Shown: one piece after another, positions 1-14,422 of the stretch | How positions within the stretch are numbered: the stretch's first letter is position 1 | Layout: each line of letters opens with the position of its first letter | NCBI GenBank assembly: GCA_013331805.1 | Contig: DUFS01000005.1 | Span: 1 to 14,422, forward strand | Direction of reading: 5' to 3' | DNA from: Candidatus Micrarchaeota archaeon | GTDB lineage: Archaea; Micrarchaeota; Micrarchaeia; Anstonellales; Anstonellaceae | Length of the DNA: 14,422 nucleotides | The notes under the pieces: generated by a model | The model's input: the letters and a program-made list of their open reading frames with translations, nothing else | The model's database searches: none | Told to the model about the DNA's origin: nothing | Translations under genes and position numbers: made by a program

Positions 1-71
1 GCCCCGACCGGGATTCGAACCCGGGTCGCCAGATTGACAATCTGGAATGCTAACCACTACACCATCGAGGC
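1..71 (-). tRNA. tRNA-Asp(GTC); discriminator base falls outside the window edge
   Basis: Reverse complement GCCTCGA TG GTGTAGTGGTTAGCAT T CCAGA TTGTCAA TCTGG CGAC CCGGG TTCGAAT CCCGG TCGGGGC folds as a cloverleaf with anticodon GTC. Confidence 0.96.
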
Positions 72-171: not shown

Positions 172-400
172 TCCCGCCAGTGTGATTTGTCCGGCTGATT
201 TTTATGGGTTTTCTTTTGAACCCCGGGGCCTTTTCTTTTTGAAAAGAAAAGGGGCCATTGAACACACAACATCTTGATAACTGCCGGCACAATCGCCGAC
301 CGCTGAGACTTTCGATGAACCGTTTTGCGAGCATCAACTCTTCCGCAGGCAAAATGGTTCTTCTACAGCCAAGCGCTCTACCAGGTTGAGCTATGGCGGG
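172..400 (-). tRNA. tRNA-Tyr(GTA) with two introns: 37/38 (362..279, 84 nt) and 58/59 (257..187, 71 nt)
   Basis: Exon 1 400-363 CCCGCCATAGCTCAACCTGGTAGAGCGCTTGGCTGTAG; exon 2 278-258 ATCAAGATGTTGTGTGTTCAA; exon 3 186-172 ATCACACTGGCGGGA. The spliced product has acceptor CCCGCCA/TGGCGGG, anticodon stem CTTGG/TCAAG, T stem GTGTG/CACAC and T loop TTCAAAT. BHB-like 4-bp helices: CTGT/GCAG and GTTC/GGAC. Confidence 0.9.
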
Positions 401-401
401 A
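383..401. repeat. Direct repeat copy 1 (tRNA-Tyr 5' end; putative att site)
   Basis: aggttgagctatggcggga, identical to 2013-2031. Confidence 0.9.
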
Positions 402-653
402 ATTTATGTCCTGAAAGGTAGCTAAGCCTTCAGGAGCGAAGAGAGATATCATCAACGATTTTAAATTCGTTCGCTTTGGGAAGAGCAAATTTCCTAGGAA
501 AAAATCAGTTCCTGAGCCAAACGTGTTGATGGTCTGTTTCAAGAGGGAATCGGAGGCCGTAAGAGACTTTAATCGTGTGGCGGTCATACCCCTGCCGCAA
601 GCTCGCGGGATTTGCCAGGTTGGCAGGCAGACGCACAGCGCGGGATTTCCCCA

Positions 654-1901
654 TTATTCTGCGAGCCATTTCCACAAAGGCATGAATTTGACTTTGCCTT
701 TGATTCCGAACCACTCGATTTCCTCCACCGCTTCGTAATCCGCAGTGAGCACAAGCAAATTCCCGCATTCCAGTTCCGCCGAAGCCTTGAGCAGCGCCCG
801 AACCTCGCGTTCGCGGACTTTTTGCCTTGCCATATCGAAGCATACCTGGATGAGTTGGCTCACCTTGCGGTCCTTGTAGATGACGAAATCCACTTCCTCG
901 TTCTGGGCATTGCGCCAGTAAAAGAACCTGAAGCCGCCCTGCGATTCCAGGCATTTCAAGCGGATGGCAACCGCATTCTCATAGCGCCGGCCTCGGTCCT
1001 GGCTTAGTTGGAACGCCTTGGCGGAAACCAGCCCGTTGTCAATGCAGTATATTTTCTTGTTTTCGCCCGCCTGCCCGCGCATCTTGTAGGAAAAACGGCT
1101 GAGGGTGAAGAACAGGTAGGCTTCCTGGAGATAGCCCATGTAGCGCTGGACGGTGTGGACGCTCCTGCAATGGCCAATCTCCGAAAGTGAGGTGTATGAG
1201 AATTCCATGGCCGTGTTGGAAAGTAGATACTGAGACAAATCAACAATGCCCTGCGGGCTGCGGATTTTATAGCGGCGCAGGATGTCCTTGTAGATTACAG
1301 AGTCGAACAGGGTGGAGAGGTATTCTTTCCTATCTATATTCTTGACCAATGGCTCGGGATAGCCGCCCTGCTCCAGGTATTCTTCCAGCTTCTGGCGCTT
1401 CTCGTTATTCGTGAGTTCGGTAGATGAAGTGGCTTTCAGGTATTCGGGGAACGAGAAGGGGAAAAGAACAACCGAGGTGTGCCTTCCGGTGAGGTGGGTG
1501 GCCAGCTCCCGGCTCAAGAGGTGCGCGTTGCTGCCTGTGATGAAGAGGTTGTAGCCTTGGCGCGAGAGGCGGTTGGCGAACAGCTCCCACTTGGGCAGGT
1601 TCTGGATTTCGTCCAAGAGCAGGATTTTCGGATTATTATGGACTGAATCTACAGCAGCCAGAAGCTCGTCGTAATCGGTTAGGTCCGCCAGCCTCTCATC
1701 GTCGAAATTGACGTAGCCCAAGTCCTTGAAGCCCGAAAGCTGGTGGATGGCGAAGAAGGATTTGCCGACCCTTCTTGGGCCTATGATGACCTTGACCAGG
1801 TTGCTGTCCTGCTGCCGAAGCTGCGCTTGGCGCGGAATGTACCGCTCGGCGAGGCGCTTCTTCAATTCGCGTTTCTGTAAGATAAGGACATCCCGGAGCA
1901 T
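654..1901 (-). CDS. AAA+ ATPase, AAA_14 + DUF4143 (COG1373-type), with C-terminal PD-(D/E)xK-like region
   Basis: 415 aa; Walker A GPRRVGKS, Walker B LLLDEIQ, ITGS, LTGR, GGYPE, KKIYCIDNGL, YENAV and C-terminal EVDFVI...IQV motifs typical of this family. Confidence 0.9.
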   Translation of the reverse strand: MLRDVLILQKRELKKRLAERYIPRQAQLRQQDSNLVKVIIGPRRVGKSFFAIHQLSGFKDLGYVNFDDERLADLTDYDELLAAVDSVHNNPKILLLDEIQNLPKWELFANRLSRQGYNLFITGSNAHLLSRELATHLTGRHTSVVLFPFSFPEYLKATSSTELTNNEKRQKLEEYLEQGGYPEPLVKNIDRKEYLSTLFDSVIYKDILRRYKIRSPQGIVDLSQYLLSNTAMEFSYTSLSEIGHCRSVHTVQRYMGYLQEAYLFFTLSRFSYKMRGQAGENKKIYCIDNGLVSAKAFQLSQDRGRRYENAVAIRLKCLESQGGFRFFYWRNAQNEEVDFVIYKDRKVSQLIQVCFDMARQKVREREVRALLKASAELECGNLLVLTADYEAVEEIEWFGIKGKVKFMPLWKWLAE

Positions 1902-1916
1902 TATTTCACCGATGTA

Positions 1917-1954
1917 TTATAATGCATAAAAGTTTATAATATTGTGCATTATAA
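1917..1954. promoter_or_regulatory. Inverted repeat bracketing the TATA-like box upstream of the ATPase gene
   Basis: ttataatgcataa (1917-1929) and ttgtgcattataa (1942-1954) are 12/13 complementary and flank tttataa (1933-1939). A GGTGA SD-like motif lies upstream of the ATG on the minus strand. Confidence 0.55.
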
Positions 1955-2012
1955 AAATTGAATTGCACCAGGAATTTGGGAAAAAGTACATGGCAGGACG
2001 TATCCACCAGTA

Positions 2013-2031
2013 AGGTTGAGCTATGGCGGGA
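2013..2031. repeat. Direct repeat copy 2 (orphan tRNA-Tyr 5' fragment)
   Basis: Exact match to 383-401. Minus-strand TTATAAA at 2056-2062 lies about 26 nt upstream of the fragment's first base (2030). Confidence 0.9.
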
Positions 2032-2171
2032 CAGGTGTACATTATCCTCAAAATGTTTATAAGAGGTGATTTTTGCCCGGCCAGCAGAGCCCTGCATTAT
2101 GTACAAAAATGTTCATTTATGTACAGTCTTATATATTTGCCCGCCCAGAAACAATCCGCAAGGAACGGTGA

Positions 2172-2309
2172 ATGGAAATGGAAAAGAGAAAGCTTTATGC
2201 GCTGGTCGGCCTGCTCATGGACGAAAGGCTGAGCGTGAGGGAGGCTGCGGACGTGATAGGCGTGTCGCACATGACTGCCTACCGCGCGCTCCAGAATTCG
2301 GAAACTTGA
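2172..2309 (+). CDS. Small helix-turn-helix DNA-binding protein (45 aa; below the ORF track cutoff)
   Basis: MEMEKRKLYALVGLLMDERLSVREAADVIGVSHMTAYRALQNSET has the classic HTH pattern S-VREAA--IGVS--TAYRAL. GGTGA precedes the ATG and TTATATAT lies at 2129-2136. Confidence 0.8.
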   Translation: MEMEKRKLYALVGLLMDERLSVREAADVIGVSHMTAYRALQNSET

Positions 2310-2451
2310 AGGCCATATGCATGGCAAGCGAACAGACAAAAATATTGCTTATTGTAAACGACGTCCCAGGAACCTCTGCGACATGCTTCCAGATTTTACG
2401 CCTCAGCTGAGCCCTGCTGAAGGGCACATGGACAGGAAGATTCTGGGAAAA

Positions 2452-3219
2452 TCAGTCCACCCTGAGCACCATGTCCGAAACCACCGTGGAGGCGCCGTCT
2501 GAGAGCACCACCTGTATGCTGAAGGTGCCCTTCTCAAGCGCTGCCCCGGAGATAAGCCCATTGTTGGACATTGAAAGTCCAAGCGGGAACCCGGTGGCGG
2601 ACCAATAGTAGCTGCCAGTGCCCCCTTCTGCTTCGAGCGCAAAGCTATACTTGGCATCCTGCACCGCACTGGCGAGCTGCTGCGTGCTGATGGAAAGAGA
2701 AGCCCCTCCCCCGGCAGCCTGGTTGCCGCCTCCTCCTGTTTCATTGCCATTGCCCCCGTTCCAGCCGGTCTGGTTCGAACTGCCCGTGTCGTTTCCGGAG
2801 GAGGAGTAAAGCACCAGGTAGGTGACTGTGATTTCCCCCCTGCACTGCGCGATGTCGGCCCCGCATCCCCTGGGAGGCATCACGATGGTGTTCTGCGACT
2901 CGCCAGGCTTTAGCGTGAGGGTGAGCTCCCCCGCGCTTCCTGATGAGATTGCAATGCTCTTGTTTTCGTTGTTTCTGACAGTCACCTGTATGCCTCCGGT
3001 GAATTTTTCCGGCTCAGGGGCAGGCTGTGGAGGAGTGTGCGCCGCGATTATCTCCTCCCCCACCTGCTGCGAAGCCACGTAGGCAAGCACAATGAGCGCG
3101 ATGATGAGCGCGCCTCCGACAGCGCCTGCAAGGAAGCTTGATTTGTCCAGGACCCTGCCGACTCCGTAATCCTTGTACTCGGACTGCACCGTTTCGGGCG
3201 CTTTCTTTTTCTTTGCCAC
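2452..3219 (-). CDS. Membrane-anchored surface protein with C-terminal putative Ig (He_PIG-like) domain; start probably GTG 3219 rather than 3267
   Basis: Lys-rich N-terminus, one hydrophobic helix (FLAGAVGGALIIALIVLAYVA), G/N/S linker and YSFALEAEGGTGSYYWSATGFPLGLSMSNNGLISG, which resembles Ig-like repeats. A start at 3267 would leave only 2 nt before the divergent gene. Confidence 0.75.
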   Translation of the reverse strand: MAKKKKAPETVQSEYKDYGVGRVLDKSSFLAGAVGGALIIALIVLAYVASQQVGEEIIAAHTPPQPAPEPEKFTGGIQVTVRNNENKSIAISSGSAGELTLTLKPGESQNTIVMPPRGCGADIAQCRGEITVTYLVLYSSSGNDTGSSNQTGWNGGNGNETGGGGNQAAGGGASLSISTQQLASAVQDAKYSFALEAEGGTGSYYWSATGFPLGLSMSNNGLISGAALEKGTFSIQVVLSDGASTVVSDMVLRVD

Positions 3220-3269
3220 GAAGTGCTTTCGGAGTGCAGGTATAAAAAATCTCCTCCCGACATTCACGC

Positions 3270-4055
3270 ATGGTGCAAGCGATAGTCTTCGACATGGACG
3301 GGGTGCTTTACAGGGGCTCCAGGAAAATCATGGGGGTTCCGGAGGAAATATCGCGGCTGCAAGAAAAAGTAGCCGTGCTTTTCCTCACGAACAACGCAAC
3401 GAAGAGCCGGTCGGATTATGTGAAGTGGCTTGCGATTTTCGGGATCAGGGCAAGCGAAAGCGAAATCATGACCTCCTCTTTCGGCTGCGCGCATTACATT
3501 AGGGAGAAGCACGGGCTTAAGCGGAAGGTTTTCGTGATAGGTGAGCAGGGGCTGAAAGATGAGCTGATGCTGGAAGCAAAAGCAAGAATTGTGGAAGGAA
3601 AAGGCGCGAAGATAGTCGTGTGCGGACTGGACAGGGGCATAACTTACAAAAAGTATGAAAATGCCATGGAAAACCTCTCTTCCGGGGCTGCTTTCATGCT
3701 TGCGAACAGCGATCCCACTCTTCCGAAAGAGCGCGGCTTTGCCCCTGGAAGCGGCGCAATCGCGTCTGTCCTGATTACCGCGACAGGAAGGAAGCCAGAC
3801 GTCACAATTGGAAAGCCCTCAACCTATCTCATTGACAAGCTGCTCCAGATGCACAAGCTCAAGCCGCAAGAGGCCGCGTTCGTGGGCGACAGGCTGGAAA
3901 TTGACATGCGCATGGCGAATGCTGTTGGCATGAAGTCGGTTCTTGTGCTCAGCGGGGTCGCGAAAAGGAAGGATGTTAAGAATGCGCCTGCGTCCGACAA
4001 GCCAGACATCATTCTTTCATCTGCAGCGAAAGTCGGGCAGGCGCTTGGAATCTGA
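3270..4055 (+). CDS. HAD-IIA family hydrolase (NagD-like phosphatase)
   Basis: FDMDGVLY motif I, LTNN motif II, GKPS and VGDRLEIDM motifs III/IV; 261 aa. Confidence 0.93.
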   Translation: MVQAIVFDMDGVLYRGSRKIMGVPEEISRLQEKVAVLFLTNNATKSRSDYVKWLAIFGIRASESEIMTSSFGCAHYIREKHGLKRKVFVIGEQGLKDELMLEAKARIVEGKGAKIVVCGLDRGITYKKYENAMENLSSGAAFMLANSDPTLPKERGFAPGSGAIASVLITATGRKPDVTIGKPSTYLIDKLLQMHKLKPQEAAFVGDRLEIDMRMANAVGMKSVLVLSGVAKRKDVKNAPASDKPDIILSSAAKVGQALGI

Positions 4056-4066
4056 CCTTGCTTTTT

Positions 4067-4336
4067 CTAATACCTGAACAGGTCCCTTACCGCCTGCTCC
4101 ACGTTTGCCTTTGTCTCTGCGTCCATCTCTTGGGGCGTGGGGCCTGCCGGCTGCGCAGGGGCGCTGACAGCGGGTTGCGAGGGGGAAAGGAGCGAGGAGA
4201 CACTCACGTGTATTGCGGCGCCGCAGTAGGAGCAGCGGGCTGAAACCGTGATGTCCTCGATCGGCATGTCGGAATTGAAGTCGAATGAATTGCTGGCGCC
4301 GCACTTGCAGGCAATGACTTTCTTGAGCGAGACCAT
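4067..4336 (-). CDS. Small putative Zn-ribbon protein (start ATG 4336 or GTG 4351)
   Basis: CKCG ... CSYCG cysteine pairs; fills the gap between the HAD and Lon-like genes; GGTGGT precedes ATG 4336. Confidence 0.7.
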   Translation of the reverse strand: MVSLKKVIACKCGASNSFDFNSDMPIEDITVSARCSYCGAAIHVSVSSLLSPSQPAVSAPAQPAGPTPQEMDAETKANVEQAVRDLFRY

Positions 4337-4399
4337 CAGTACCACCGACACCCAAATGCGCTGACAACAATTATATAGTATGTCCCCGTTCTTTTCACA

Positions 4400-5815
4400 A
4401 TGGAGGTCGCCAATATTTCTTCCACGGCAGATGTCGCCATTCCGAAGGATCCGCTATTGCAGATAATAGGCCAGGACGAGGCAGTGCGGATTGGAAGGAT
4501 GGTGGGCTCGCAGCGGCGCCACCTCCTGTTGGTGGGCCCGCCCGGCACTGGAAAATCCATGCTGGCGCAGGCAATAGCCTCCACACTTTCCAAGCCAAAG
4601 CAGGAGGTTCTGGTTTTACACAACCCGGAAAAGCCCGAGCGGCCGGTTATCCAGGTCCGCTTGACATCTTCGAAAAAAAGCGAAAAAAAGCCGCAGGGCG
4701 AGCTTCTTGAGCCCACCATGGTCCCTGCCTACATTTCGGAAAAGCTGGGATTCCGCTGCAGGCGCTGCTCGCGGCTCTCCTCCCCTGACGCCTCCTCCTG
4801 CTATTTTTGCGGGGCTGACAAGTACAAGAAGGTAAGGGGGCCGTTCGAGGACCTGCTCATCGGCGCAGGCGTTCCTGAGCGGGAGGAGCGGGTGCACACC
4901 ACGCGCGTGCGCGACGGAAGGGAGGAGCTGGTGATATTTGAGCGCAGGGGCGACAGGATTGCGCTTCTTACGCAAAAGGAGCTTTCGAAAATGGCGGAAA
5001 TGCAGCAGAAGATGCAGTTCAAGGTGCTGCTGCCCATAAACCGGCCGACCTTTGTGCAGGCCACGGGTGCCTCGGAAACCGAGCTTTTGGGCGACGTCAG
5101 GCACGACCCCTATGGCTCGCACCCTGCAATAGGCTCGCTGCCATATACCCGCGTGGTGCCGGGCGCTGTACATGAAGCTCATGAGGGCGTGCTTTTCATT
5201 GACGAGCTTTCCTCGCTTGGGAAGCTGCAGAGATTCATACTCACGGCTATGCAGGAGAAAAACTATCCCATTTCAGGCAGGAACCAGTCATCGACCGGCT
5301 CTTCCGTTCGTGTGGACGGGGTGCCTGCTGACTTCATTCTTGTAGCGGCGCTGAACATCAATGACATGTCGCTCATCCTTCCCCCGCTGCGCTCCAGAAT
5401 TCTTGGGAACGGCTACGAGCTTCTGATGAACACTCACATGGACGACACGGAAGGCAACCGGCTCAAATTGGTGCAGTTCCTTGCGCAGGAGATAGTGCGC
5501 GACGGAAGGATCCCGCACGCTGATTCCGGCGCGATTGAGCAGATGATAACCTACGCAAGGACAAAGGCAAAGGAAATTGACGATGTTGGGGGGCTTACCC
5601 TGCGCCTGAGGGTGCTTTCAGGAACGATTAAGATGGCAGGGGACATTGCTGCCTCGAACGGAAGGCCATCCATTACCGGAGATGACGTGAAATTCGCGGT
5701 TGCAAACTCAAAGTCAGTGGAGGAGCAGGCAACTGAGAAGTACGGCTCCTGGTACAAGGCATCCCTGGCAGATTACGGAATGAAAAAAGAGAAGGGCGGG
5801 ACTGAGGTGGGTTAA
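4400..5815 (+). CDS. Lon-related (LonB-type) AAA+ ATPase lacking the protease domain
   Basis: IPKDPLLQIIGQDEA, Walker A GPPGTGKS, LLGDVRHDP, GAVHEAHEGVLFIDE, PPLRSRI and LTLRLR match the archaeal LonB ATPase domain. It stops at 471 aa with no Ser-Lys protease domain and has a CRRC..CYFC insert. Confidence 0.88.
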   Translation: MEVANISSTADVAIPKDPLLQIIGQDEAVRIGRMVGSQRRHLLLVGPPGTGKSMLAQAIASTLSKPKQEVLVLHNPEKPERPVIQVRLTSSKKSEKKPQGELLEPTMVPAYISEKLGFRCRRCSRLSSPDASSCYFCGADKYKKVRGPFEDLLIGAGVPEREERVHTTRVRDGREELVIFERRGDRIALLTQKELSKMAEMQQKMQFKVLLPINRPTFVQATGASETELLGDVRHDPYGSHPAIGSLPYTRVVPGAVHEAHEGVLFIDELSSLGKLQRFILTAMQEKNYPISGRNQSSTGSSVRVDGVPADFILVAALNINDMSLILPPLRSRILGNGYELLMNTHMDDTEGNRLKLVQFLAQEIVRDGRIPHADSGAIEQMITYARTKAKEIDDVGGLTLRLRVLSGTIKMAGDIAASNGRPSITGDDVKFAVANSKSVEEQATEKYGSWYKASLADYGMKKEKGGTEVG

Positions 5816-5821
5816 AGCGAC

Positions 5822-5849
5822 AATACATGTTTATAAATACATGTCTATA
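5822..5849 (+). repeat. Tandem AATACATGT(T/C)TATA promoter-region repeat; third copy at 6927-6941
   Basis: aatacatgtttataa 5822-5836 is identical to 6927-6941. A variant, aatacatgtctata, lies at 5836-5849. Confidence 0.8.
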
Positions 5850-5871
5850 TATCAAAATCAGGTGATATTCG

Positions 5872-6900
5872 ATGCTTACGATAAAGGGAGGTTATCCGAG
5901 CCATAATTTTAAGGGGACGCAGCATTTTCCGACTCCTCTTGCAATCAAGAAATTAATCGAAGGAGCCGAAAAAAACGCGCAAGAACACGGCTTTAGGGCG
6001 CATGTGTTCCAAACAAGCGAGGTGAGTTCCAAGTACGTGGTGCAAACCATCAAGGCTGCGATAAAAAAGAAATGGGAACACACTGAAATTTCAAAAGAAT
6101 GCGCCAAACAGAAACTCACTCAGGAAGAGAAGGCATTCGTGCTGAATTTTCTCGTTTACTGGAAAGAGCTGGAGGCCCAGCCTGAGTTTCGCGAAACCGC
6201 CAAACAGATGGTGGACTACCTTTTCAAGGAATCTGCGGAGCACTTTTGGGGCACCGGCAAGGCATCGTATTGCGTATCCCTGCTTGCCGAAGATGGCAGC
6301 CCTGCGGGAATGCTGCTCGGAGCGTTACTGCGCCCATATGAACTGCTGACTAATAACAAGGTCAAGATGAACCCGATGCGGGGGAGCGATTTCATAAATT
6401 TTTACCAGTACATCGTGGTTCCTGAAGAGTACCGCAATGAAGGAGGAGCGGATGTGCTCCAAGCAGCAGCTGAAAAATTCGTAAAGACGCACACCAGCCG
6501 CTACAGCAACCTGATAATCGCCCAGGTCGACAAGGACAACCCGGTGTTTGATGACCAAGCCAAGATGAGGATGCTGCCTTATGAGATACCGGGGCTGAGG
6601 CATTTTGAAATGATACCTAATGACTCGCTTTATGCCATACAATGCGAATTCCCGCCTGCAAGCAAGCAGGAACCCCTCACTCTTAGGATATTGAGCCCTG
6701 AAACAAAGGGCGTATTGCGTGGTGACTCTGTCATAGATATGGTCAAGGGGCTTGTTTCGTACTACGATGTCTATCCCGGGCATAAGATTGCTGGAACGAA
6801 AAGAGAAGCTTTTGACGCCTACGTTAATTACCATCTGAAAAATGTCAAGTTCGGCAAGGACGGCAATGTGCAACTGGAATATCGGGGCGAAAAAAAATAG
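5872..6900 (+). CDS. Hypothetical protein with a probable GNAT acetyltransferase-like fold
   Basis: 342-aa ORF with AGGTGA SD. YIVVPEEYRNEGGADVLQAAAE resembles the GNAT acetyl-CoA-binding motif A. Confidence 0.6.
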   Translation: MLTIKGGYPSHNFKGTQHFPTPLAIKKLIEGAEKNAQEHGFRAHVFQTSEVSSKYVVQTIKAAIKKKWEHTEISKECAKQKLTQEEKAFVLNFLVYWKELEAQPEFRETAKQMVDYLFKESAEHFWGTGKASYCVSLLAEDGSPAGMLLGALLRPYELLTNNKVKMNPMRGSDFINFYQYIVVPEEYRNEGGADVLQAAAEKFVKTHTSRYSNLIIAQVDKDNPVFDDQAKMRMLPYEIPGLRHFEMIPNDSLYAIQCEFPPASKQEPLTLRILSPETKGVLRGDSVIDMVKGLVSYYDVYPGHKIAGTKREAFDAYVNYHLKNVKFGKDGNVQLEYRGEKK

Positions 6901-6905
6901 CCTCG

Positions 6906-6918
6906 TTCTTTATTTTTT
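6906..6918 (+). terminator. Oligo-T tract after the GNAT-like gene
   Basis: ttctttatttttt just after the stop codon; consistent with an archaeal T-rich terminator. Confidence 0.4.
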
Positions 6919-7032
6919 AAATTATTAATACATGTTTATAATCAGGAGAGCAACACCAAATTCAATAAGTTGATTCGATGAAGAATTCTTTCTGATTTTT
7001 TAAACAGCCTGCGTTCCGGGCTAAGAAAAAAG

Positions 7033-8826
7033 CTAGATTTTCCCCAATGCCCACAAAAGCAGAAGCGCGGATGCTATTAGGATTATGGGAAGCGCCACCC
7101 GGAGTATGGAAACTGCCGCGTTTATGGTGGAGGCAATTTCCGCGGACTGGCCGGTGCCGAACACCTTTATCCTGAAGCGCTCCTCTGCCGAGTCGAACTT
7201 GACTTCCTCCAGCTTCTTTGCGGCTTGCCCAAACAGCTTGCGCACAGCCATCATCACGTCCCCTTTTTGCGCAACTCCAAGCGGGTTTAGCACGCCGCGG
7301 ACGGTATTGATCTGGTGGGTGTCCGAAGTCATCACTTCGCCCTTGCAGATAAAGCCCTGTTCCCTGCCAAGATTTGCCATGAGGCCGATAAGCTCGGTGC
7401 GGAACTCGGGCACAATGCCGTTGGAGTCTGCCAGCAGAAGCGCGTTCATTTTCTTGCCCTGGGAAAAAAGCGCAAGCTTCAGGCCGTTTTTCCCAATTGT
7501 GTCCACTGCAGGGTAAGCTGAGGCGCAGCCGAACCTGAAGGGTGCTGCCTTGGAGCCGGATTGGAAAAGCTTCTCCGTGGCGTCAAGCATCTCAAATGCA
7601 ATCGGGCTGCCCACTTCCACAGACGAGATGTCGCCGGTTTCCGCATTGTGCTCGTCCACCGCGCAGGCGCTTGAGCAGTATTTCTTTGCCTTTTCCATGA
7701 GAGCCAAGCCCAACCCCATGTTCACATCCTCTGTGGTAAGGGGGGCGCGGGAATAGGAAACGAAAGCAGAGTCATTGATGCGGTAGGCCTGCGCGCGGAC
7801 GCTGCCCACCCTGCAGGAGGCAAAGGAGAGCTCGGACGAAGCAGGCTTTAGCCTTTTGAGGGCTTTTTCGCAGGCGCCCACCACCTTGTGTATTTCTTCA
7901 GAGGAAACCGGGTTGAAGTCGTGCGTGGCTGTCCCATGGAAGACGAATACGTCATTTTTGGCGTTCCCGTGCCTGGAAAGCGAACTTCCAATCATGGAGG
8001 TGAACTCGCTTCCGCCCAGATTCCCGAAAGGACCGTAGTGGATGTAGGGGACCACGAAAATAGCGCTGTTTTCCTTCCCCTTGAATGCCGCAAGCCAGAC
8101 CAGCGTTTCCACTTCCTCGCCGATCTCCTCAAATGCCTCCTCCAGGTCTTTGCCCCCGTACAGCCACTGCGATGCGAACATGGACAGGGCATCCAGGCTG
8201 GAAATCCCAAGGTTCTTTTTCATGGGCATTGAGATGAAGTAGAAAAGCGAGTAGAGCGCAGCAAGGAGCAGGAAGGAGGCGAAATATATCTTGATGAGAG
8301 CCGCCTGGAAATCCTCGCCTGCCGAAAAACCGCCCCTGGCAAGGAAGAACACCGCGAAAAAGACCATCTGCATTGTGGCAAAAAGAAAAGCGCTCCTCCT
8401 GAAGTCAAATGCCAAAAGCAATGTGAAATACCAAAGCCCGAATGCGAATGCGAACCCGACAAAGACTATGTTGTATGCCCAGCTTCCCATGGTGGAAAGG
8501 GCGAACGAGGCAAGGTAAAAGGCGCCATAGACCGCTGCCGAAAGCAGCCCCAGGAAGGCGCTTCTCCTGAATATCGCCTTCCTTCTCATTAGGAAAAGGC
8601 AAGCTGAGGAAAGAAGCGCAGGAAAGGCAAGCACAAAAAAGCCGTCTATGCCTGCTGCGAAAAGCTCAAACGGGCCCATTTGCCTGGCTTTTGCAAGGCC
8701 GAATAGTATTCCGAAAAGGAAGGAGACTGCCAAAATCATGAAGCAGGTCTTTGCAGGGTGGGGAAGGGAAAGGAAGTATTTCGCAAGCACCAGCGCATCC
8801 TTTTTTACCTGCTGCATAAATACCAC
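7033..8826 (-). CDS. DUF2070 family archaeal membrane protein (predicted neutral-ceramidase-like hydrolase)
   Basis: 597 aa; multiple N-terminal TM helices, then IHYGPFGNLGGS, HGTATHDFNPVS, VDEHNA, DSNG, TSDTH and a C-terminal TM helix. Confidence 0.85.
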   Translation of the reverse strand: MVFMQQVKKDALVLAKYFLSLPHPAKTCFMILAVSFLFGILFGLAKARQMGPFELFAAGIDGFFVLAFPALLSSACLFLMRRKAIFRRSAFLGLLSAAVYGAFYLASFALSTMGSWAYNIVFVGFAFAFGLWYFTLLLAFDFRRSAFLFATMQMVFFAVFFLARGGFSAGEDFQAALIKIYFASFLLLAALYSLFYFISMPMKKNLGISSLDALSMFASQWLYGGKDLEEAFEEIGEEVETLVWLAAFKGKENSAIFVVPYIHYGPFGNLGGSEFTSMIGSSLSRHGNAKNDVFVFHGTATHDFNPVSSEEIHKVVGACEKALKRLKPASSELSFASCRVGSVRAQAYRINDSAFVSYSRAPLTTEDVNMGLGLALMEKAKKYCSSACAVDEHNAETGDISSVEVGSPIAFEMLDATEKLFQSGSKAAPFRFGCASAYPAVDTIGKNGLKLALFSQGKKMNALLLADSNGIVPEFRTELIGLMANLGREQGFICKGEVMTSDTHQINTVRGVLNPLGVAQKGDVMMAVRKLFGQAAKKLEEVKFDSAEERFRIKVFGTGQSAEIASTINAAVSILRVALPIILIASALLLLWALGKI

Positions 8827-8833
8827 AAAAGCG

Positions 8834-9043
8834 CTATTTCTGCCTTATGACCGAGCCGCTTTTCTTTTGGGGAAGTGCCCCCTCGCCCTGCTTGAGCATG
8901 GAGTGCAGCCTTTCCCCGTTTTCCAGATACTTTCGCGCCACTTCCTCAAAGCTCTTGCCGGACTTGTGCGCAAGCTTCATGAGCTCAAGGGTGAGAAACC
9001 TGATTTCAGAGTTCGCTGCCGATTCCTTTTCCTCATCTTCCAT
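8834..9043 (-). CDS. Small hypothetical protein (69 aa, MEDEEKES...)
   Basis: ATG 9043 lies 22 nt from the TATATATA at 9066-9073. The sequence is helical and charged, and the gene is co-oriented with DUF2070 across a 7-nt gap. Confidence 0.7.
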   Translation of the reverse strand: MEDEEKESAANSEIRFLTLELMKLAHKSGKSFEEVARKYLENGERLHSMLKQGEGALPQKKSGSVIRQK

Positions 9044-9065
9044 GGCAGCATTTCGCAGGAGTGGG

Positions 9066-9073
9066 TATATATA
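9066..9073. promoter_or_regulatory. Palindromic TATA box shared by divergent genes
   Basis: TATATATA lies 22-23 nt from both ATG 9043 (-) and ATG 9097 (+). Confidence 0.6.
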
Positions 9074-9096
9074 CGTATCTTCGTAGGAATTCCCCC

Positions 9097-9702
9097 ATGG
9101 CAAGGCACTGCCCGATCTGCGGAAAAGCTGAGACAGGAGTCGAGTTTTATGGCGAGCTTTGCCTGCCATGCGCCAAAAGCAGGCTTCCACCCCTCCAGCC
9201 TGTGAAAATCACGCTTTGCCAGAAATGCGGCTCCCTCATAGACAAGGGCAGGAACAGGAAGGATGCCTCGCTTTCAGAAGAGGTGGTGCGGCTCCTGAAG
9301 CTCAAGGGGAAAAATGCGGATTTTGACATAAAGAGGGGCTTAGTCGGATACGACACGCCATTTGGCAGGGTGAGCCAGAGCGCGCTTGTCCTTCAGGATA
9401 AGTCAATCTGCACAATATGCGGGAGGGCGGGAACGCAGTACTTTGAGGCGATAGTGCAGCTTCGCGGGGAGGAGGGAAAGGTCATGAAGATGTCCGATTC
9501 CCTGGTCGGGAAGCTTCAGAAAAAAACATTCGTCCCGAAAATCGAGGAGAAAAAGGAGGGAATAGACATATACGTGGGAAGCAGGAACGAGGCGATTGCA
9601 GCCATCAACGCATTCTCGCTTTCCTTTGTGAGGACCGAAAAGCTCGCTGGCGAGCGGGACGGAAAAAGGCTTTATCGCACTACGCTATTAGTGAGGCTTT
9701 AA
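9097..9702 (+). CDS. nmd3: NMD3-related ribosome biogenesis protein, short form (201 aa)
   Basis: CPICG..LCLPC..LCQKCG..CTICGR, YFEAIVQLR, GIDIYVGS and C-terminal DGKRLYRTTLLVRL match archaeal NMD3. Confidence 0.85.
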   Translation: MARHCPICGKAETGVEFYGELCLPCAKSRLPPLQPVKITLCQKCGSLIDKGRNRKDASLSEEVVRLLKLKGKNADFDIKRGLVGYDTPFGRVSQSALVLQDKSICTICGRAGTQYFEAIVQLRGEEGKVMKMSDSLVGKLQKKTFVPKIEEKKEGIDIYVGSRNEAIAAINAFSLSFVRTEKLAGERDGKRLYRTTLLVRL

Positions 9703-10220
9703 TCCCCGAAATATTCCCCAAACCTTTTGATGTCCGGCGCCTCATTCCCGAATTTCCCGTGCCATTCCCTTGCCAGCCTGCCGTGCTCCAGGAGCTCGCG
9801 CCGAAGCTGCTCCGCCACTTTCTCCGTTCCCTCCTCGCGCTCGAATTTCACTGGGCAGAGCGCGTGCTTCTTCACGTTTTTTCCCCCCAGGTCAAACGGG
9901 TAGAGCCTGCAGACGTGCGGGCGGTTCGGGTAGATCCCGCACGCAAGGTCGTCCTGCAAAAAGACGCAGTCCACGCCCCGTTTCCTCTTCAGCACTATGA
10001 AATATTCCTCCACCGTTCCCTGCCGCTGCACCAGCAGGGGGTAGTGGGGCGTTTCCCTTGAATTTACGTTGGCGGTAAACTCCAGGAAGTCCTCAGGGGC
10101 AAGGCCAAGCTCTTTCACCATCCTTTTGGCTTCCGGTATGGTGAGGACGACTGCGAGCCCGCGGCAGCAGCGGGCGGTGCAGCCCTTGCACGAGTTCGTG
10201 ATGGAAGGAGAGATGGACAT
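9699..10220 (-). CDS. YkgJ family cysteine-cluster (CxxCxxCC) protein
   Basis: CKGCTARCC, CVFL, CGIYPNRPHVCRLYPF. Confidence 0.9.
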   Translation of the reverse strand: MSISPSITNSCKGCTARCCRGLAVVLTIPEAKRMVKELGLAPEDFLEFTANVNSRETPHYPLLVQRQGTVEEYFIVLKRKRGVDCVFLQDDLACGIYPNRPHVCRLYPFDLGGKNVKKHALCPVKFEREEGTEKVAEQLRRELLEHGRLAREWHGKFGNEAPDIKRFGEYFGD

Positions 10221-10330
10221 GGGATTCCCTTGGGGGTTGAACCCTCAAGGGGGCAATGGGTTATCTTAGACCCCCTTAGGGATGGGATCGGCTTGCTGTT
10301 CTGCAGCAAGTCTCCCAAATCATTCTGATT

Positions 10331-10440
10331 TGGGATCGTAGGGATTTGAACCCTAACATGCAGGTGTATTCTGGTGCCCGTGCCTTGCGGCGCGGGCGTG
10401 ATCTGGAGCCTGCCGCGCTACCAAGTTACGCCACGACCCC
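10331..10440 (-). tRNA. tRNA-Trp(CCA) with a 37-nt intron at 37/38 (10402..10366)
   Basis: Exon 1 GGGGTCGTGGCGTAACTTGGTAGCGCGGCAGGCTCCAG; exon 2 ACCTGCATGTTAGGGTTCAAATCCCTACGATCCCA. Stems: GGGGTCG/CGATCCC, GCAGG/CCTGC and TAGGG/CCCTA. Confidence 0.93.
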
Positions 10441-10541
10441 CTATTTGACTATTTTTTACCACATCAAACTAACCCGCCGCTGCCGTCCATTGCGGCGGTG
10501 CCGTAATGGCTTATTATGGCGCTCGGTTTTTTAAATCAGCT

Positions 10542-10682
10542 TCAACGCTTTTGAACGCTGAATTTTTCAGCTCCTGGCCTGAGCCGGACAACCAAGGAGT
10601 CGTTTTCTTCCCCGGCTTCAAGGTCCTCCCAGTTCTCGTTTATAGCGATTCTCAGGCAGTTCAGTCTCACATCAAAGCCCAT
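10542..10682 (-). CDS. Small hypothetical protein (46 aa; not in the ORF track)
   Basis: MGFDVRLNCLRIAINENWEDLEAGEENDSLVVRLRPGAEKFSVQKR, preceded by a strong SD (GGAGGTGA-TTTG-ATG). Confidence 0.55.
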   Translation of the reverse strand: MGFDVRLNCLRIAINENWEDLEAGEENDSLVVRLRPGAEKFSVQKR

Positions 10683-10802
10683 CAAATCACCTCCGCTGGT
10701 CGTCTAGCGAGATTCCTATTACACTATCCAAACAACCATCCAGCTGTGGGATAGCCTTAAATACTTTGTCTTACGTAACTTATCTTGAAGATGTGTTTTG
10801 AC

Positions 10803-11594
10803 ATGCAAAATATCAGATTCGGGGAGATGGAATCCAAGGCGCTTTTCGCGCTGGAGGAGCGCGAGGCAGGGATAATCACGCTCGGGCAACTGGCAGCAAT
10901 GCTTCGGCTGACTCATGTGCAGGCATGGGGCCTTGCCTCCCGCCTGGTGCGCAAGCACCGCCTCATCCGCCTCAAGAGGGGAACCTATCTCTTTGCCCCC
11001 ATGAAGGCAGGCCCCAAAGGAGAGTGGAGCGAGGATGCACTAGGGGCGGTGCCCAAGCTTATGGAAGGCCGTGAATATTACGTAGGATTCTGGGCGGCAC
11101 TCAGCCATTACGGGCTCACAGAGCAAATCCCCCTGAACATCCAGCTGGTAACGCGAGGCCAGCAGCGCCATTTCAGGGCCCTCCAGACGAGCTTCGAGTT
11201 TGTCCAAGTGAGAAGATTGGGCGAGTGGAAGATGGAAAAAATCGGTGCGCATGATGTGAAGATGGCTACTGTTGAGCAGCTCATCCTGGACTGCCTGTCC
11301 ATGCCTGAGAAGTGCGGGGGCGTCAAGATGGCCTGCCAGGCGATTTGGACAGCTCAGGAAAAGGTGGATTGGAAAAAGCTGGAAACTTTGGCTTCCAAAT
11401 CAAATGACGCGGTCCGAAGGCGGCTGGGCTATGTGTGCGAACTGCTCAATGTGCGCAAAATGAAGCCCGGCAGGCTGGCGGGCTGGCGCTGGCTCGACCC
11501 TTCTGCCAAGAAACAGGCGCTGGCCAAATCCGAAAAATGGGGGCTGGTATTAAATGTTGGGGAGAAGCAGCTGATGGAATGGAGGGAGACTTGA
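10803..11594 (+). CDS. abiEi: Type IV toxin-antitoxin AbiEi-family antitoxin / wHTH transcriptional regulator
   Basis: N-terminal wHTH (LASRLVRKHRLIRLKRGTYL), YYVGFWAALSHYGLTEQIP, ATVEQLILDCL and RRLGYVCE; directly abuts the toxin gene. The ORF track start is 10785, but ATG 10803 is preferred. Confidence 0.88.
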   Translation: MQNIRFGEMESKALFALEEREAGIITLGQLAAMLRLTHVQAWGLASRLVRKHRLIRLKRGTYLFAPMKAGPKGEWSEDALGAVPKLMEGREYYVGFWAALSHYGLTEQIPLNIQLVTRGQQRHFRALQTSFEFVQVRRLGEWKMEKIGAHDVKMATVEQLILDCLSMPEKCGGVKMACQAIWTAQEKVDWKKLETLASKSNDAVRRRLGYVCELLNVRKMKPGRLAGWRWLDPSAKKQALAKSEKWGLVLNVGEKQLMEWRET

Positions 11595-12353
11595 ATGCTT
11601 GCCCTAAGCGAATTGAAGCGTATGGCCGCCCGCGAAGGCGTGCCGCAGGCAATCGTGGAGAAAGATTACGCGCTGTCGGTCGCCCTCAAGGTTCTTGCTG
11701 GATCGGAGCTGGCCCAAAGGTGCGTTTTCAAGGGAGGCACGGCGATTCGCAAGGCCTATTTCAAGGAGGCGAGATATTCCGAAGACCTGGACTTCACGGC
11801 CATCAATATGGAAAAGGGCGACTGCCTGCGCCTGTTGCGCGCAGCGCTTGAAGGCAAAACAACAGAGGGCATCCTGTTTGCGGATATTGAGGAGATAAGG
11901 ACGGCGGCAGGCCTCAAGGCGGCTGTGAAATACCTTGGCCCTCTCGGCTATGCACAAAGGATCAGGTTTGATTTCAGTTTCAGGGACAACCTGGCGGAGA
12001 AGCCCGAGGTGCGGGGCCTGATTGACTCTTACAGCATCGGACCGGCCAAGATGCAGGTTATGGGCATCGAAGAGATATTTGCCGAGAAGTTGCACGCGCT
12101 GGGCTCCCGCTCCGCGCCCAGAGACCTGTACGATGTCTGGTTCCTGCTGGGCAAGGGCGTCAAGGTGGATTCCAAAGTGCTTGAACGCAAGTTCGACTTT
12201 TACAACGAAAAGTTCGACGCAAAGAAGGCGATTGACAACGCCCGAAAGAGCGAAGAGGAATGGACGCGGGATTTGCAGCCCCTGCTCAAGATGTTGCCGG
12301 ACTACGAGAAAGTGGAACGCGAAGTGGAGAAAGGATTGGACCTGTTGTTGTAA
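11595..12353 (+). CDS. abiEii: AbiEii/AbiGii (DUF1814) nucleotidyltransferase toxin
   Basis: VEKDY, FKGGTAI, RYSEDLDF, AEKLHAL and RDLYD motifs. Confidence 0.92.
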   Translation: MLALSELKRMAAREGVPQAIVEKDYALSVALKVLAGSELAQRCVFKGGTAIRKAYFKEARYSEDLDFTAINMEKGDCLRLLRAALEGKTTEGILFADIEEIRTAAGLKAAVKYLGPLGYAQRIRFDFSFRDNLAEKPEVRGLIDSYSIGPAKMQVMGIEEIFAEKLHALGSRSAPRDLYDVWFLLGKGVKVDSKVLERKFDFYNEKFDAKKAIDNARKSEEEWTRDLQPLLKMLPDYEKVEREVEKGLDLLL

Positions 12354-12373
12354 TTAAAAAAAGAGGTGCTACG

Positions 12374-12574
12374 ATGGGAGACACGGTGATCGTAATACCT
12401 GAAGAAATGCTGCGCCTGAACAAGGCAAAAGACGGCCTTGTCCTGCCGCGAGAAGTGCCCCTGGAATGGGCATTCGGCGGCTATACCCGCAGCGGCAACT
12501 GGAAGGAGTTTTTTAACAGGAGGATATGCGGGCATGTGCGAGACGAGGACAATTCGGTAATTTCAGGGGATTGA
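12374..12574 (+). CDS. Small hypothetical protein (66 aa), possibly a truncated gene
   Basis: GAGGTG SD before ATG 12374 (MGDTVIVIPEEMLRL...). Confidence 0.5.
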   Translation: MGDTVIVIPEEMLRLNKAKDGLVLPREVPLEWAFGGYTRSGNWKEFFNRRICGHVRDEDNSVISGD

Positions 12575-12661
12575 CGAATCAGCTCGACTTGATCTTTGCC
12601 TTGCCGCAGCTTGAGAATAAAGAAGAAGGGATTTTCCAAAAAGGAGCTTGAGGGATTGTAG

Positions 12662-13228
12662 ATGAAACGTCTCTATCTGTCTTTTGCCCCTCCGAAAAAG
12701 TGGAGAAACGGCAGGCAGAAGAAATGGCTTGAGGGCACCGCCTGGAAGCGGCTGCGGCAGAAAACAATGGACAGACACGATTACGCCTGTGTTTATTGCG
12801 GCTATCGCTCGGAAAAATACCAGATTGCAGACCATATTGACGGCGACCCTGAAAATAATGCTGACAGCAACCTGCAGGTCGTATGCCAGATGTGCAACCT
12901 GATAAAGCACTCGGGGCAGGGGTGCGTCATAGTCGGGATTGTCGACCTTTACAAAAAATCGAGGTTTTCCCAAAACGAGATAATGCGCCTGACGCACGAA
13001 ATGCGGGGCAGGGGCGCGAGCGACGCTAGGATAATCCGCCATCTTGGGCTTGAGGAAAAAGCCAGGTTCAGGCAGGACAGGGGCTATTTGAAAGGGCTTT
13101 ACGGTTTTGTGACTTCAAAGCCCAGCTTCGATGAAAACGATATGTACAGCAAATGGCTGGGATACCGCAAATCACATAATAGCGAGCCAAAATTGGATGA
13201 ACACCAAACAAGACTAACTGAGCGATAA
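12662..13228 (+). CDS. HNH endonuclease
   Basis: WKRLRQKTMDRHDYACVYCG ... DHIDGDPENNADSNLQVVCQMCNLIKH. Confidence 0.9.
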   Translation: MKRLYLSFAPPKKWRNGRQKKWLEGTAWKRLRQKTMDRHDYACVYCGYRSEKYQIADHIDGDPENNADSNLQVVCQMCNLIKHSGQGCVIVGIVDLYKKSRFSQNEIMRLTHEMRGRGASDARIIRHLGLEEKARFRQDRGYLKGLYGFVTSKPSFDENDMYSKWLGYRKSHNSEPKLDEHQTRLTER

Positions 13229-13240
13229 GGGTGAGTCAGA

Positions 13241-14233
13241 ATGAAAAACATTTCTCAGGCAACCGTTGAAGATGTCCGTTCGCTTGCAGGTTCGAAAATC
13301 TTCCGGCGGGGAGTGGAATACTTTGCTGAAGGCTGTGTTGTAAATCCGAGCGTCTTGGGAAACGAGATACGCGCAGAAGTGGAGGGTTCCTCATCAAGCA
13401 ACTACAAAACATATGTCAAGCTTGAACGTGGCAAACTGAAAAGCGATTGCAGCTGCCCTTATGACTGGGGCGTATGCAAACACGTAATAGCGCTGCTTTT
13501 GCACTGGATAAACCGGAGAGAAGACTTTGAAGATATGGGCAAGAAGTCAAAAGATGCAGCCAAAATGCCGAAAGCTGATTTGGTGAAAATAGTCGAAACA
13601 CTCGCTCGAGAGGAGCCCCAAACGTTCTCGAAAATCATGGAGCTGGCCCTTCCGCAGAAAATTTCAAATGAAACCGGTTCCCCTGATTTCGTAAAACAGG
13701 CACTGCGGACGCTTGAGCATGGCGCAGGCTATCAGGAGATGTCGTCTGCGATGAGGCAACTGGAGGCATGGCGCCAGCGAATGAAAATCAGGCTACAGAC
13801 GAAACAATATGATTACGTAGCTGAACAACTATGCAGGCTGGCAGACGCCTGCGCGGTGCATTATGGTTCTTTTGACGATTCGAACGGCCAATTAGCGAGT
13901 TTTGTAGATGAGTGTCTTGCAGATATCGAAAAGATTTGGAGTTCGGTTGGGGAGAAAAAGAGAATCGAGCTCCTTGCGCTTATTTGGAACAGGGCTGAAA
14001 AAGATGATTATGGCTTTGAGGATAGTTTCGATGATTTTCTCATTAAGGCGTGCAAGACCAGCGTGGAGCAGCAGTCACTGAAAAAGCCGATTATTCAAAA
14101 ATTGACGATGCTGGAGGGGGAAGGCGGGAAGAACAGCAAAAGCGGGGCAATGCAATATCAGTATGAACGGGTGTTCGAACTCGCCCTCAATCTCGGCTAT
14201 ATTAACAAGAAGGGCGTCTATCTTCAAGATTGA
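13241..14233 (+). CDS. SWIM zinc-finger domain protein
   Basis: IFRRGVEYF, AEVEGS, CSCPYDWGVCKHVIALL (CxC-x-CxH) and a helical C-terminus with DDSNG; GGTGA SD. Confidence 0.9.
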   Translation: MKNISQATVEDVRSLAGSKIFRRGVEYFAEGCVVNPSVLGNEIRAEVEGSSSSNYKTYVKLERGKLKSDCSCPYDWGVCKHVIALLLHWINRREDFEDMGKKSKDAAKMPKADLVKIVETLAREEPQTFSKIMELALPQKISNETGSPDFVKQALRTLEHGAGYQEMSSAMRQLEAWRQRMKIRLQTKQYDYVAEQLCRLADACAVHYGSFDDSNGQLASFVDECLADIEKIWSSVGEKKRIELLALIWNRAEKDDYGFEDSFDDFLIKACKTSVEQQSLKKPIIQKLTMLEGEGGKNSKSGAMQYQYERVFELALNLGYINKKGVYLQD

Positions 14234-14330
14234 CGTCCCTAGGAGATGTACTCCTGCTATTTAGAAAATGTCAATCCACAGTCAAAAAATCAAATTCTCT
14301 TCTCGATGACCCCAGAACAAAAAGTAGCAC

Positions 14331-14346
14331 GTAACGCCACGACCCC
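14331..14346. repeat. Copy of tRNA-Trp 5' end (putative distal att site)
   Basis: gtaacgccacgacccc versus gttacgccacgacccc at 10425-10440. Confidence 0.75.
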
Positions 14347-14376
14347 GATTTTGAGCGAATTTTCACGTCGTAGATT

Positions 14377-14403
14377 CGCGCTACCAGGTAAATTCGCGAC
14401 CCC
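14377..14403. repeat. Second, degenerate copy of tRNA-Trp 5' end plus D arm
   Basis: cgcgctaccaggtaaattcgcgacccc versus cgcgctaccaagttacgccacgacccc (10414-10440): 21/27 identical without gaps. Confidence 0.65.
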
Positions 14404-14422
14404 GTAGCGCCAATGCGACACG

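Follow-up and report, generated by a model that had tools for sequence, protein, structure and literature searches.

Duplicated tRNA 5' ends around integrase-less islets in a Micrarchaeota contig: probable scars of site-specific integration

We analysed 14,422 nucleotides (nt) of DNA from Candidatus Micrarchaeota archaeon, the entire contig C71 of genome G000, which we call the window. It holds two blocks of accessory genes, a single ATPase gene next to tRNA-Tyr and a group of AbiE, HNH and SWIM genes next to tRNA-Trp, and each of them lies between an intact, intron-containing tRNA gene and a short second copy of the 5' end of that tRNA. Both blocks are insertions between duplicated tRNA 5' ends, as an original prediction made from the letters of the window had it. 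We think it probable that the repeats are the left and right junction scars of site-specific integration into tRNA 5' ends, and that the islets are integrase-less modules flanked by attachment (att) sites. For comparison, genome sets of the genus (23 genomes) and of the order (151) were used. Other G numbers denote related genomes, C a contig and L a locus. G000 has a size of 1.19 Mb in 83 contigs and is 91.5% complete.

The Tyr block consists of the following features:

172..400, minus strand: tRNA-Tyr(GTA) with two introns (anticodon loop and T loop), exons at approximately 400-362, 275-258 and 188-172; read by hand.
383..401, minus strand: copy of the core within the intact tRNA-Tyr (tRNA positions -1 to 18), an attR-like junction; repeat search.
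402..482, minus strand: tRNA-proximal end of the insert, with a hairpin (411-435) and, some 60 nt before the tRNA, a TATA-like box; comparison with relatives.
654..1901, minus strand: ATPase with AAA_14 and DUF4143 domains, the sole gene of the 1630-bp insert; Pfam, E 1e-30 and 6e-20.
1913..1955, no strand assigned: palindromic AT-rich region upstream of the ATPase gene; self-match on both strands.
2013..2031, minus strand: orphan tRNA-Tyr 5' end, an attL-like junction, which departs from the tRNA after position 18; repeat search.
2032..2075, minus strand: displaced native promoter region of tRNA-Tyr; comparison with relatives.

Run on the window, ARAGORN found nothing, and the tRNA-Tyr gene escaped every tool, Rfam included. 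When its exons were joined by a script, ARAGORN called a full-length tRNA-Tyr(GTA), although this procedure was permissive, as a range of exon ends was tried. Relatives share the exon sequences, and contigs of related strains omit 191-257 and substitute 306-360, that is, the two introns.

The Trp block and the sequence beyond it contain the following:

10331..10440, minus strand: tRNA-Trp(CCA) with one intron, its 13-nt core at 10428-10440; tRNA search.
10441..10695, no strand assigned: tRNA-proximal end of the islet, with a counterpart of 84% identity in front of tRNA-Trp in G022.
10785..12353, plus strand: AbiEi/AbiEii pair, cargo; Pfam, and PADLOC with E 3e-47 for AbiEi and 1e-53 for AbiEii.
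12662..13228, plus strand: HNH nuclease, cargo; Pfam, relatives in G034 and G001.
13241..14233, plus strand: SWIM zinc-finger protein, cargo; Pfam.
14281..14346, minus strand: orphan tRNA-Trp core (14334-14346) with a conserved type A element end of about 50-66 nt; alignment of type A ends.
14347..14422, minus strand: proximal end of another element that extends beyond the contig end, similar to element-borne sequence upstream of tRNA-Trp in G020, G011 and G001.

The Pfam assignments (AAA_14 with DUF4143, AbiEi, AbiEii, HNH and SWIM) agree with the genes that had been named from the translations. In PADLOC, the HNH and SWIM genes have weak matches to the ZorE HNH domain and to PDC-S62. An open reading frame (ORF) of 82 amino acids at 10506-10754, with no family match, overlaps the 255-nt proximal stretch of the islet.

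Next, we asked whether the repeats are real. The tRNA-Tyr repeat (383-401 and 2013-2031) is exact over 19 of 19 positions, and a search that allowed up to two mismatches gave two matches in the window compared to a mean of 0.00 over 200 shuffles. The tRNA-Trp repeat (10425-10440 and 14331-14346) agrees at 15 of 16 positions, with an exact core of 13 nt (10428-10440 and 14334-14346) and again a shuffle expectation of 0.00. In tRNA numbering, the repeats span positions -1 to 18 of tRNA-Tyr and 1 to 13-16 of tRNA-Trp, which is the acceptor 5' strand and the start of the D-arm. This confirms both the two duplications and the part of the tRNA that they had been said to cover; both repeats are real and beyond chance.

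Since the window comprises an entire contig, with repeats at its ends, in a genome of 83 contigs, one could suspect that the repeats arose in the assembly or binning of a metagenome-assembled genome, a possibility that the original prediction had also raised. However, the right Tyr junction is bridged by contigs from four runs, which belong to four different studies, and the left one by contigs from two; these contigs differ from the window by 0-10 letters. Moreover, the same architecture is found in many independent genomes. As contigs of independent runs bridge the junctions, we give the artefact explanation next to no credence.

Neither in the Tyr nor in the Trp block does Pfam find a recombinase, and a tblastn search with 42 integrases of relatives gave no match with an E better than 0.01 anywhere in the window. 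Both searches agree with the predicted absence of a recombinase from the two blocks.

The tRNA-Tyr block is a clean insertion. DNA of G012 and G014 matches window positions 2013-2074 (84% and 79%) and continues directly into their tRNA-Tyr, which is the empty site. The prediction had proposed looking at relatives for empty sites or different cargo: in all 18 inspected relatives the promoter region runs straight into tRNA-Tyr, and none has the 1630-bp insert, while at the Trp site the cargo varies. Nine of these 18 carry at their tRNA-Tyr the promoter type that precedes the orphan copy in the window. Further upstream, the helix-turn-helix gene at 2172-2306 is syntenic, matching G005, G010 and others upstream of their tRNA-Tyr. 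At the other end of the insert, the 80 nt beside tRNA-Tyr (402-482) are homologous only to the stretch upstream of tRNA-Tyr on contig C7 of G003 and unlike 17 other listed relatives. This stretch presumably supplies the present promoter of tRNA-Tyr. We also considered G028 as a parallel case, with an ATPase upstream of an intron-bearing tRNA, but it has no orphan copy and was rejected.

The ATPase of the insert matches the PADLOC defence candidate PDC-S01 over its full length (E 1.8e-102). Its family is patchy and multi-copy (16 of 41 genomes), and in the relatives of the genus none of its matches lies on the tRNA-Tyr contig. The palindromic region 1913-1955 matches the upstream regions of ATPase orthologues in G001 and G032 and is likely a promoter or operator of the ATPase gene.

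Could the DUF4143 ATPase mobilise its own single-gene cassette, so that the Tyr insert and other repeat-bracketed copies would be self-mobile? Paralogues do lie in segments bracketed by exact repeats of 63 nt (G022:C10, locus L067, 1244-3562), 31 nt (G001:C152, locus L064, 1316-2776) and 21 nt (G000:C41, 19-4344), and one paralogue lies beside a type A end in G003:C43. The 63-nt and 31-nt repeats restore the 3' end of a protein-coding gene. However, bracketing repeats are absent from most of the 30 loci examined, no recombinase fold has been demonstrated for the ATPase, and the family matches a defence candidate, defence genes being common cargo. We reject a common ATPase cassette because the homology between orthologues ends at the gene and its own promoter and not at the cassette ends. 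Self-mobility of the ATPase thus seems improbable to us; it is a recurrent cargo of small att-like insertions.

In the Trp block, the sequence upstream of the orphan is of the element type and contains no chromosomal promoter, and contigs of two runs extend past 14422 into a second copy of the sequence from 14334 onward. In total, G000 has six copies of the 13-nt Trp core, on C71, C56 and C37, and only one full-length tRNA-Trp was seen. The orphan on C56, which is of type A, abuts TerC/DUF475, L35Ae and archease; the genes TerC, L35Ae and archease are the native neighbours of tRNA-Trp in G006, G016 and G004. In G006 the Trp site is empty, with tRNA-Trp 280 nt from TerC and gene-less mini-inserts alone between them. 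Probably, the islet in the window is the tRNA-proximal, first module of a larger array, which would reach its chromosomal end on C56. Because element-type sequence lies beyond the window orphan and native tRNA-Trp neighbours lie beside the C56 orphan, we infer one composite array of at least 13.8 kb between tRNA-Trp and its former neighbour.

Inserts without genes, about 65-80 nt long, were also seen between the promoter and tRNA-Trp, or an orphan, at L022 (G005), L085 (G006) and L032 (G000:C56). They begin with an 8-nt partial core and can fold a GGGG...CCCC hairpin.

We then looked at how general this arrangement is. The 13-nt Trp core occurs at least twice in 17 of the 151 genomes of the order and in 10 of the 23 genomes of the genus, compared to a control with the reversed core pattern, which never occurs twice in any genome. 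A tRNA-Tyr orphan was found in one of the 23 and one of the 151 genomes, namely G000 alone. The architecture had been described as recurrent; this holds for tRNA-Trp but not for tRNA-Tyr.

Among the 31 Trp orphans that we inspected, 26 are followed by one of four conserved end families, which we call A (7 orphans), B (5), C (5) and D (9). If a further copy with two mismatches is added to type A, its ends number eight; they come from four genomes, can be aligned over some 66 nt, and each of them lies beside a different cargo. Most of the segments between the cores are small. Twelve of the 19 measure less than 1.6 kb and hold one or two genes, and these 12 are divided evenly between the orientation of the tRNA (6) and the opposite one (6). 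In the 18 of the 19 inter-core segments that were scanned, no integrase was found. One two-gene cassette, coding for proteins of 200 and 229 amino acids, is shared by two species, on G003:C43 and G021:C8, with 85% identity over 1532 nt; the homology sets in at one core and ends at the next, between unrelated flanks. Related copies of this cassette are present in G022 and G045.

The same position at tRNA-Trp carries different cargo in different genomes, in agreement with the prediction. For instance, the 255-nt proximal stretch of the Trp islet, although 84% identical in G022, is followed there by a different cargo. The idea that such sites are slots for defence cassettes fits only in part. Defence-like cargo is indeed abundant in the Trp arrays (AbiE, a SoFic-like Fic protein, the PDC-S01 ATPase, pairs of nucleotidyltransferases), but they also carry a 10.5-kb osmoadaptation island, surface proteins with immunoglobulin-like and beta-helix folds, and metabolic genes.

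Type C cassettes have a GGAGG that resembles a ribosome-binding site and an ATG, both in the orientation of the tRNA and no more than about 30 nt away from the orphan core; examples are L082 (G007:C84, 1410-3110), L095 (G002, 1489) and G000:C37 (765). Because they follow the orphan core so closely, the displaced tRNA promoter may drive the type C cassette gene. At L167, a metagenome locus, a partial second copy of the tRNA-Trp 3' part lies directly after the gene, and this tRNA-Trp may therefore be targeted at both ends.

Which enzyme could be responsible? In relatives we found a clade of tyrosine integrases at exactly this site. On contig C47 of G003, an intact ORF of 419 amino acids starts 60 nt from the 5' end of tRNA-Trp and is transcribed divergently from it; its catalytic domain comprises residues 148-321, and the only Pfam match at E up to 0.001 is the general integrase family PF00589. 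The same element encodes a DNA methylase, a TraG/HerA-like ATPase and a Cdc6-like protein. Orthologues with 72-77% identity in G080, G065 and G102 have the same layout at tRNA-Trp, likewise those of two metagenome loci, and further members of the clade are found at tRNA-Pro(GGG) in G105 (61%), on G003:C19 (33%) and at one metagenome locus. In summary, all nine members lie about 60 nt from a tRNA 5' end and are divergent to it (six at tRNA-Trp, three at tRNA-Pro).

Eight other integrases of relatives have the classical layout and directly follow the 3' end of a tRNA. Six of the nine members of the 5' clade were included in a quick maximum-likelihood tree, where they lie together on one side of a branch with a Shimodaira-Hasegawa-like approximate likelihood ratio test (SH-aLRT) support of 95, apart from all eight 3'-adjacent ones. 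The nearest annotated relatives of the 5'-clade integrase come from archaeal pleomorphic viruses and haloarchaeal plasmids, at about 25-30% identity. No Thermococcales record was among its plasmid and virus matches, in collections for which the presence of pTN3 is unconfirmed.

A recombinase acting in trans, which was one of the two mechanisms proposed originally, is therefore the best explanation, since this clade sits at exactly this site in relatives and none of its members was found in G000. Because there is no recombinase in the blocks and a distinct integrase clade occupies the same site elsewhere, we regard the islets as integrase-less modules that resemble the cis-mobilizable elements (CIMEs) of bacteria. 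The tRNA introns had been given a role as well, with the intron-free 5' exon as the docking site. This is not supported: of the eight tRNAs that adjoin an integrase at their 3' end, four contain introns too, and the introns of the Trp and Tyr targets have no shown relevance. In G000 itself, about 10 of 22 listed tRNAs are longer than 80 nt.

The other proposed mechanism was a homology-driven exchange, in which the tRNA 5' exon would be a mere patch of homology for host recombination or microhomology exchange and no dedicated recombinase would be needed. The shortness of the repeats and a window that is free of recombinases would suit such a process. However, the core of 13-19 nt adjoins element ends that are conserved and characteristic of each family, a dedicated integrase clade exists at the same site, and single-sided homology would not both restore an intact tRNA and leave an orphan. 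We consider homology-driven exchange very improbable.

The mechanism that we propose is a conservative site-specific recombination between the core at the start of the tRNA (13-14 nt for tRNA-Trp, 18-19 nt for tRNA-Tyr) and the same core on an incoming circular element. The enzyme would be a tyrosine integrase of the clade specialised on tRNA 5' ends. A crossover at the 5' end has three consequences: the element must bring its own promoter and leader for the tRNA, the original chromosomal promoter is left facing an orphan of 13-19 nt, and the orphan and the tRNA then enclose the cargo. With repeated integration at the site next to the tRNA, modules would stack up into arrays. The two islets of the window would be non-autonomous modules of the CIME kind, either decayed elements or cassettes that were moved in trans. 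Observed are the junctions, the empty sites, the conserved ends, the core-to-core homology of a cassette and the adjacency of the integrases; the supply of the promoter, mobility at the present day and the identity of the integrase behind the Tyr insertion are what we would deduce from them.

Several observations weigh against integration by this clade. The Tyr case stands alone, and no integrase was found at any tRNA-Tyr 5' end. G003:C7 shares the proximal end of the Tyr insert, yet it has no orphan within 38 kb and no integrase beside its tRNA-Tyr. For G000 we found two integrases, neither of them of the 5' clade, in a genome that is 91.5% complete. The Trp-type integrase is present in only two of the 17 genomes with repeated cores, and in two of these 17 (G080 and G038) the second core looks like a chance match in coding DNA. 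No contig joins across the Tyr or the Trp islet, although contigs of four runs cannot show rare variants or excision. A scan of viral contigs gave no free (attP) form of an integrase-bearing element, all three metagenome loci being integrated, and because no free element was recovered, a match between the cassette ends and the arms of the integrase attP is not demonstrated.

Some of these points lead to a different explanation, namely that the islets are inert fossils: complete integrase-bearing elements that lost the integrase and most other genes by deletion and do not move today. Fifteen of the 17 array-bearing genomes are without a Trp-type integrase, some orphan cores have one or two mismatches (L030 at 14229, L160 at 3063, L031 at 5358), and the contigs of the four runs contain no excision joint. 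On the other hand, random deletion would not be expected to leave tidy units of one or two genes with both ends conserved. In two species whose flanks are unrelated, one cassette is homologous over exactly the stretch between its cores. Type A ends are retained beside eight different cargos, and the Tyr repeat is perfect (19 of 19). While the tidy cassette boundaries and the conserved ends favour mobility, the missing integrases and the few decayed cores favour fossils, and we keep the fossil explanation as possible but rather doubtful.

If modules do integrate at the tRNA 5' end as we propose, each event replaces the promoter of an essential tRNA, and a variable array of small modules forms at the site, many of them defence or toxin-antitoxin genes. 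Such arrays would account for the contig breaks at these loci. In poorly annotated DPANN genomes, accessory genes could then be found by searching between orphan tRNA 5' cores. A more far-reaching idea can be offered only tentatively: the first 13 bases of the single tRNA-Trp gene may be an integron-like docking platform in this DPANN family, where cassettes of 0.7-1.5 kb with one or two genes and at least four end families are inserted, stacked and exchanged between species by plasmid-borne 5'-specific integrases. If this were true, each insertion would give the essential tRNA a new promoter, and the old promoter would drive the cassette behind it.

A classical integration in tandem at a tRNA 3' end adjoins the window. 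Its first feature is:

1..71, minus strand: tRNA-Asp(GTC), truncated by the contig end; Rfam, 60 bits.

Positions 1-23 of the window are identical to positions 1-23 of C60, another contig of G000 (locus L098), which has an integrase gene at 90-1268 and two additional copies of the tRNA-Asp 3' core at about 8275 and 12597. The 3' end of tRNA-Asp is thus the attachment site of the integrase-bearing element on C60, and this integrase fits the 3'-end layout. No tRNA was seen beside the second integrase of G000, on C64. In G003:C14 (L135), an Rfam match to RT-16 RNA (55 bits, above the gathering score) lies at 950-1154, and the integrase about 1.3 kb away abuts a tRNA 3' end.

The last stretch of the window, 14347-14422, contains a CACGTCGTAGA box (14363-14375) and a degenerate stretch that resembles the 5' half of tRNA-Trp (14377-14403). 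Boxes of this form, or their complement, were noted about 10-16 nt outward of attachment cores both at a tRNA 3' end and at tRNA-Trp 5' ends: apart from the window, they occur on C60 after each Asp 3' core and upstream of tRNA-Trp in G020, G011, G001 and G022. The box may be a shared recombinase-binding motif or a motif of mini-elements.

The whole G000 genome gave no more than 21 tRNA-family matches, and in many of these there are long introns. Since just 21 matches were obtained at 91.5% completeness and tRNA-Tyr was missed, many tRNAs of this lineage probably go undetected.

How do the islets compare with known systems? In a literature search on tRNA-integrated integrase elements in Micrarchaeota, none of the papers listed was on topic, judged by title or abstract. 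A transposon or casposon is at odds with the duplications, which have no fixed length (13, 14 and 19 nt) and equal tRNA sequence; a repeat search of the window also found no inverted repeats paired with the insert ends. Compared to a typical tyrosine-recombinase element at a tRNA, the islets match in the repeat and in the empty site and differ in having no internal integrase. Cognate integrases for the same site are known for tRNA-Trp, where six abut the 5' end, and none was found for tRNA-Tyr.

Bacterial CIMEs, as outlined in PMC5704250, are att-flanked elements without genes for integration and transfer, which stack in tandem at one att site and occasionally have integrase-bearing partners. 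Likewise, both islets keep attL and attR and are without integration and transfer genes, and their core is the same as at the integrase-bearing elements of relatives, with the att arms compared at the core alone. The differences are that the target is the 5' and not the 3' end, that the hosts are archaea, and that there are many single-gene cassettes with family-specific ends; mobilisation of the modules is putative here.

As in an integron, one fixed attachment site gathers cassettes of one or two genes with conserved ends, rich in defence and toxin-antitoxin genes, and in some of the cassettes (type C) the gene begins directly behind the core, with a promoter farther upstream. Unlike integron cassettes, these are not co-oriented (6 versus 6 of 12), the arrays mostly have no adjacent integrase, a tRNA gene serves as the attachment site, and the Tyr cargo brings a palindromic promoter region of its own.

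The closest precedent are the pTN3-like (SSV-type) integrases, for which the primary papers are reportedly those of Cossu et al. 2017 and Krupovic and Bamford 2008. A 2021 review (PMC8371274) describes these self-splitting integrases of Thermococcales as the only archaeal ones that target the 5' half of tRNA genes, and states that the tRNA is afterwards expressed from the integrase promoter. The earlier remark that 5' targeting is known but uncommon agrees with this account. Shared features are an attB in the 5' part of the tRNA and the restoration of an intact tRNA, which would have to be expressed from an element-side promoter next to the integrase gene. However, the attP of pTN3-like elements lies in the integrase gene, which is split upon integration, whereas the 5'-clade integrase described here stays whole beside the tRNA; moreover, the core is short (13-19 nt), the hosts belong to DPANN, and the site holds arrays of small integrase-less modules. 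Our results thus add a second, unrelated-looking clade of 5'-targeting integrases, with an intact gene, in DPANN archaea.

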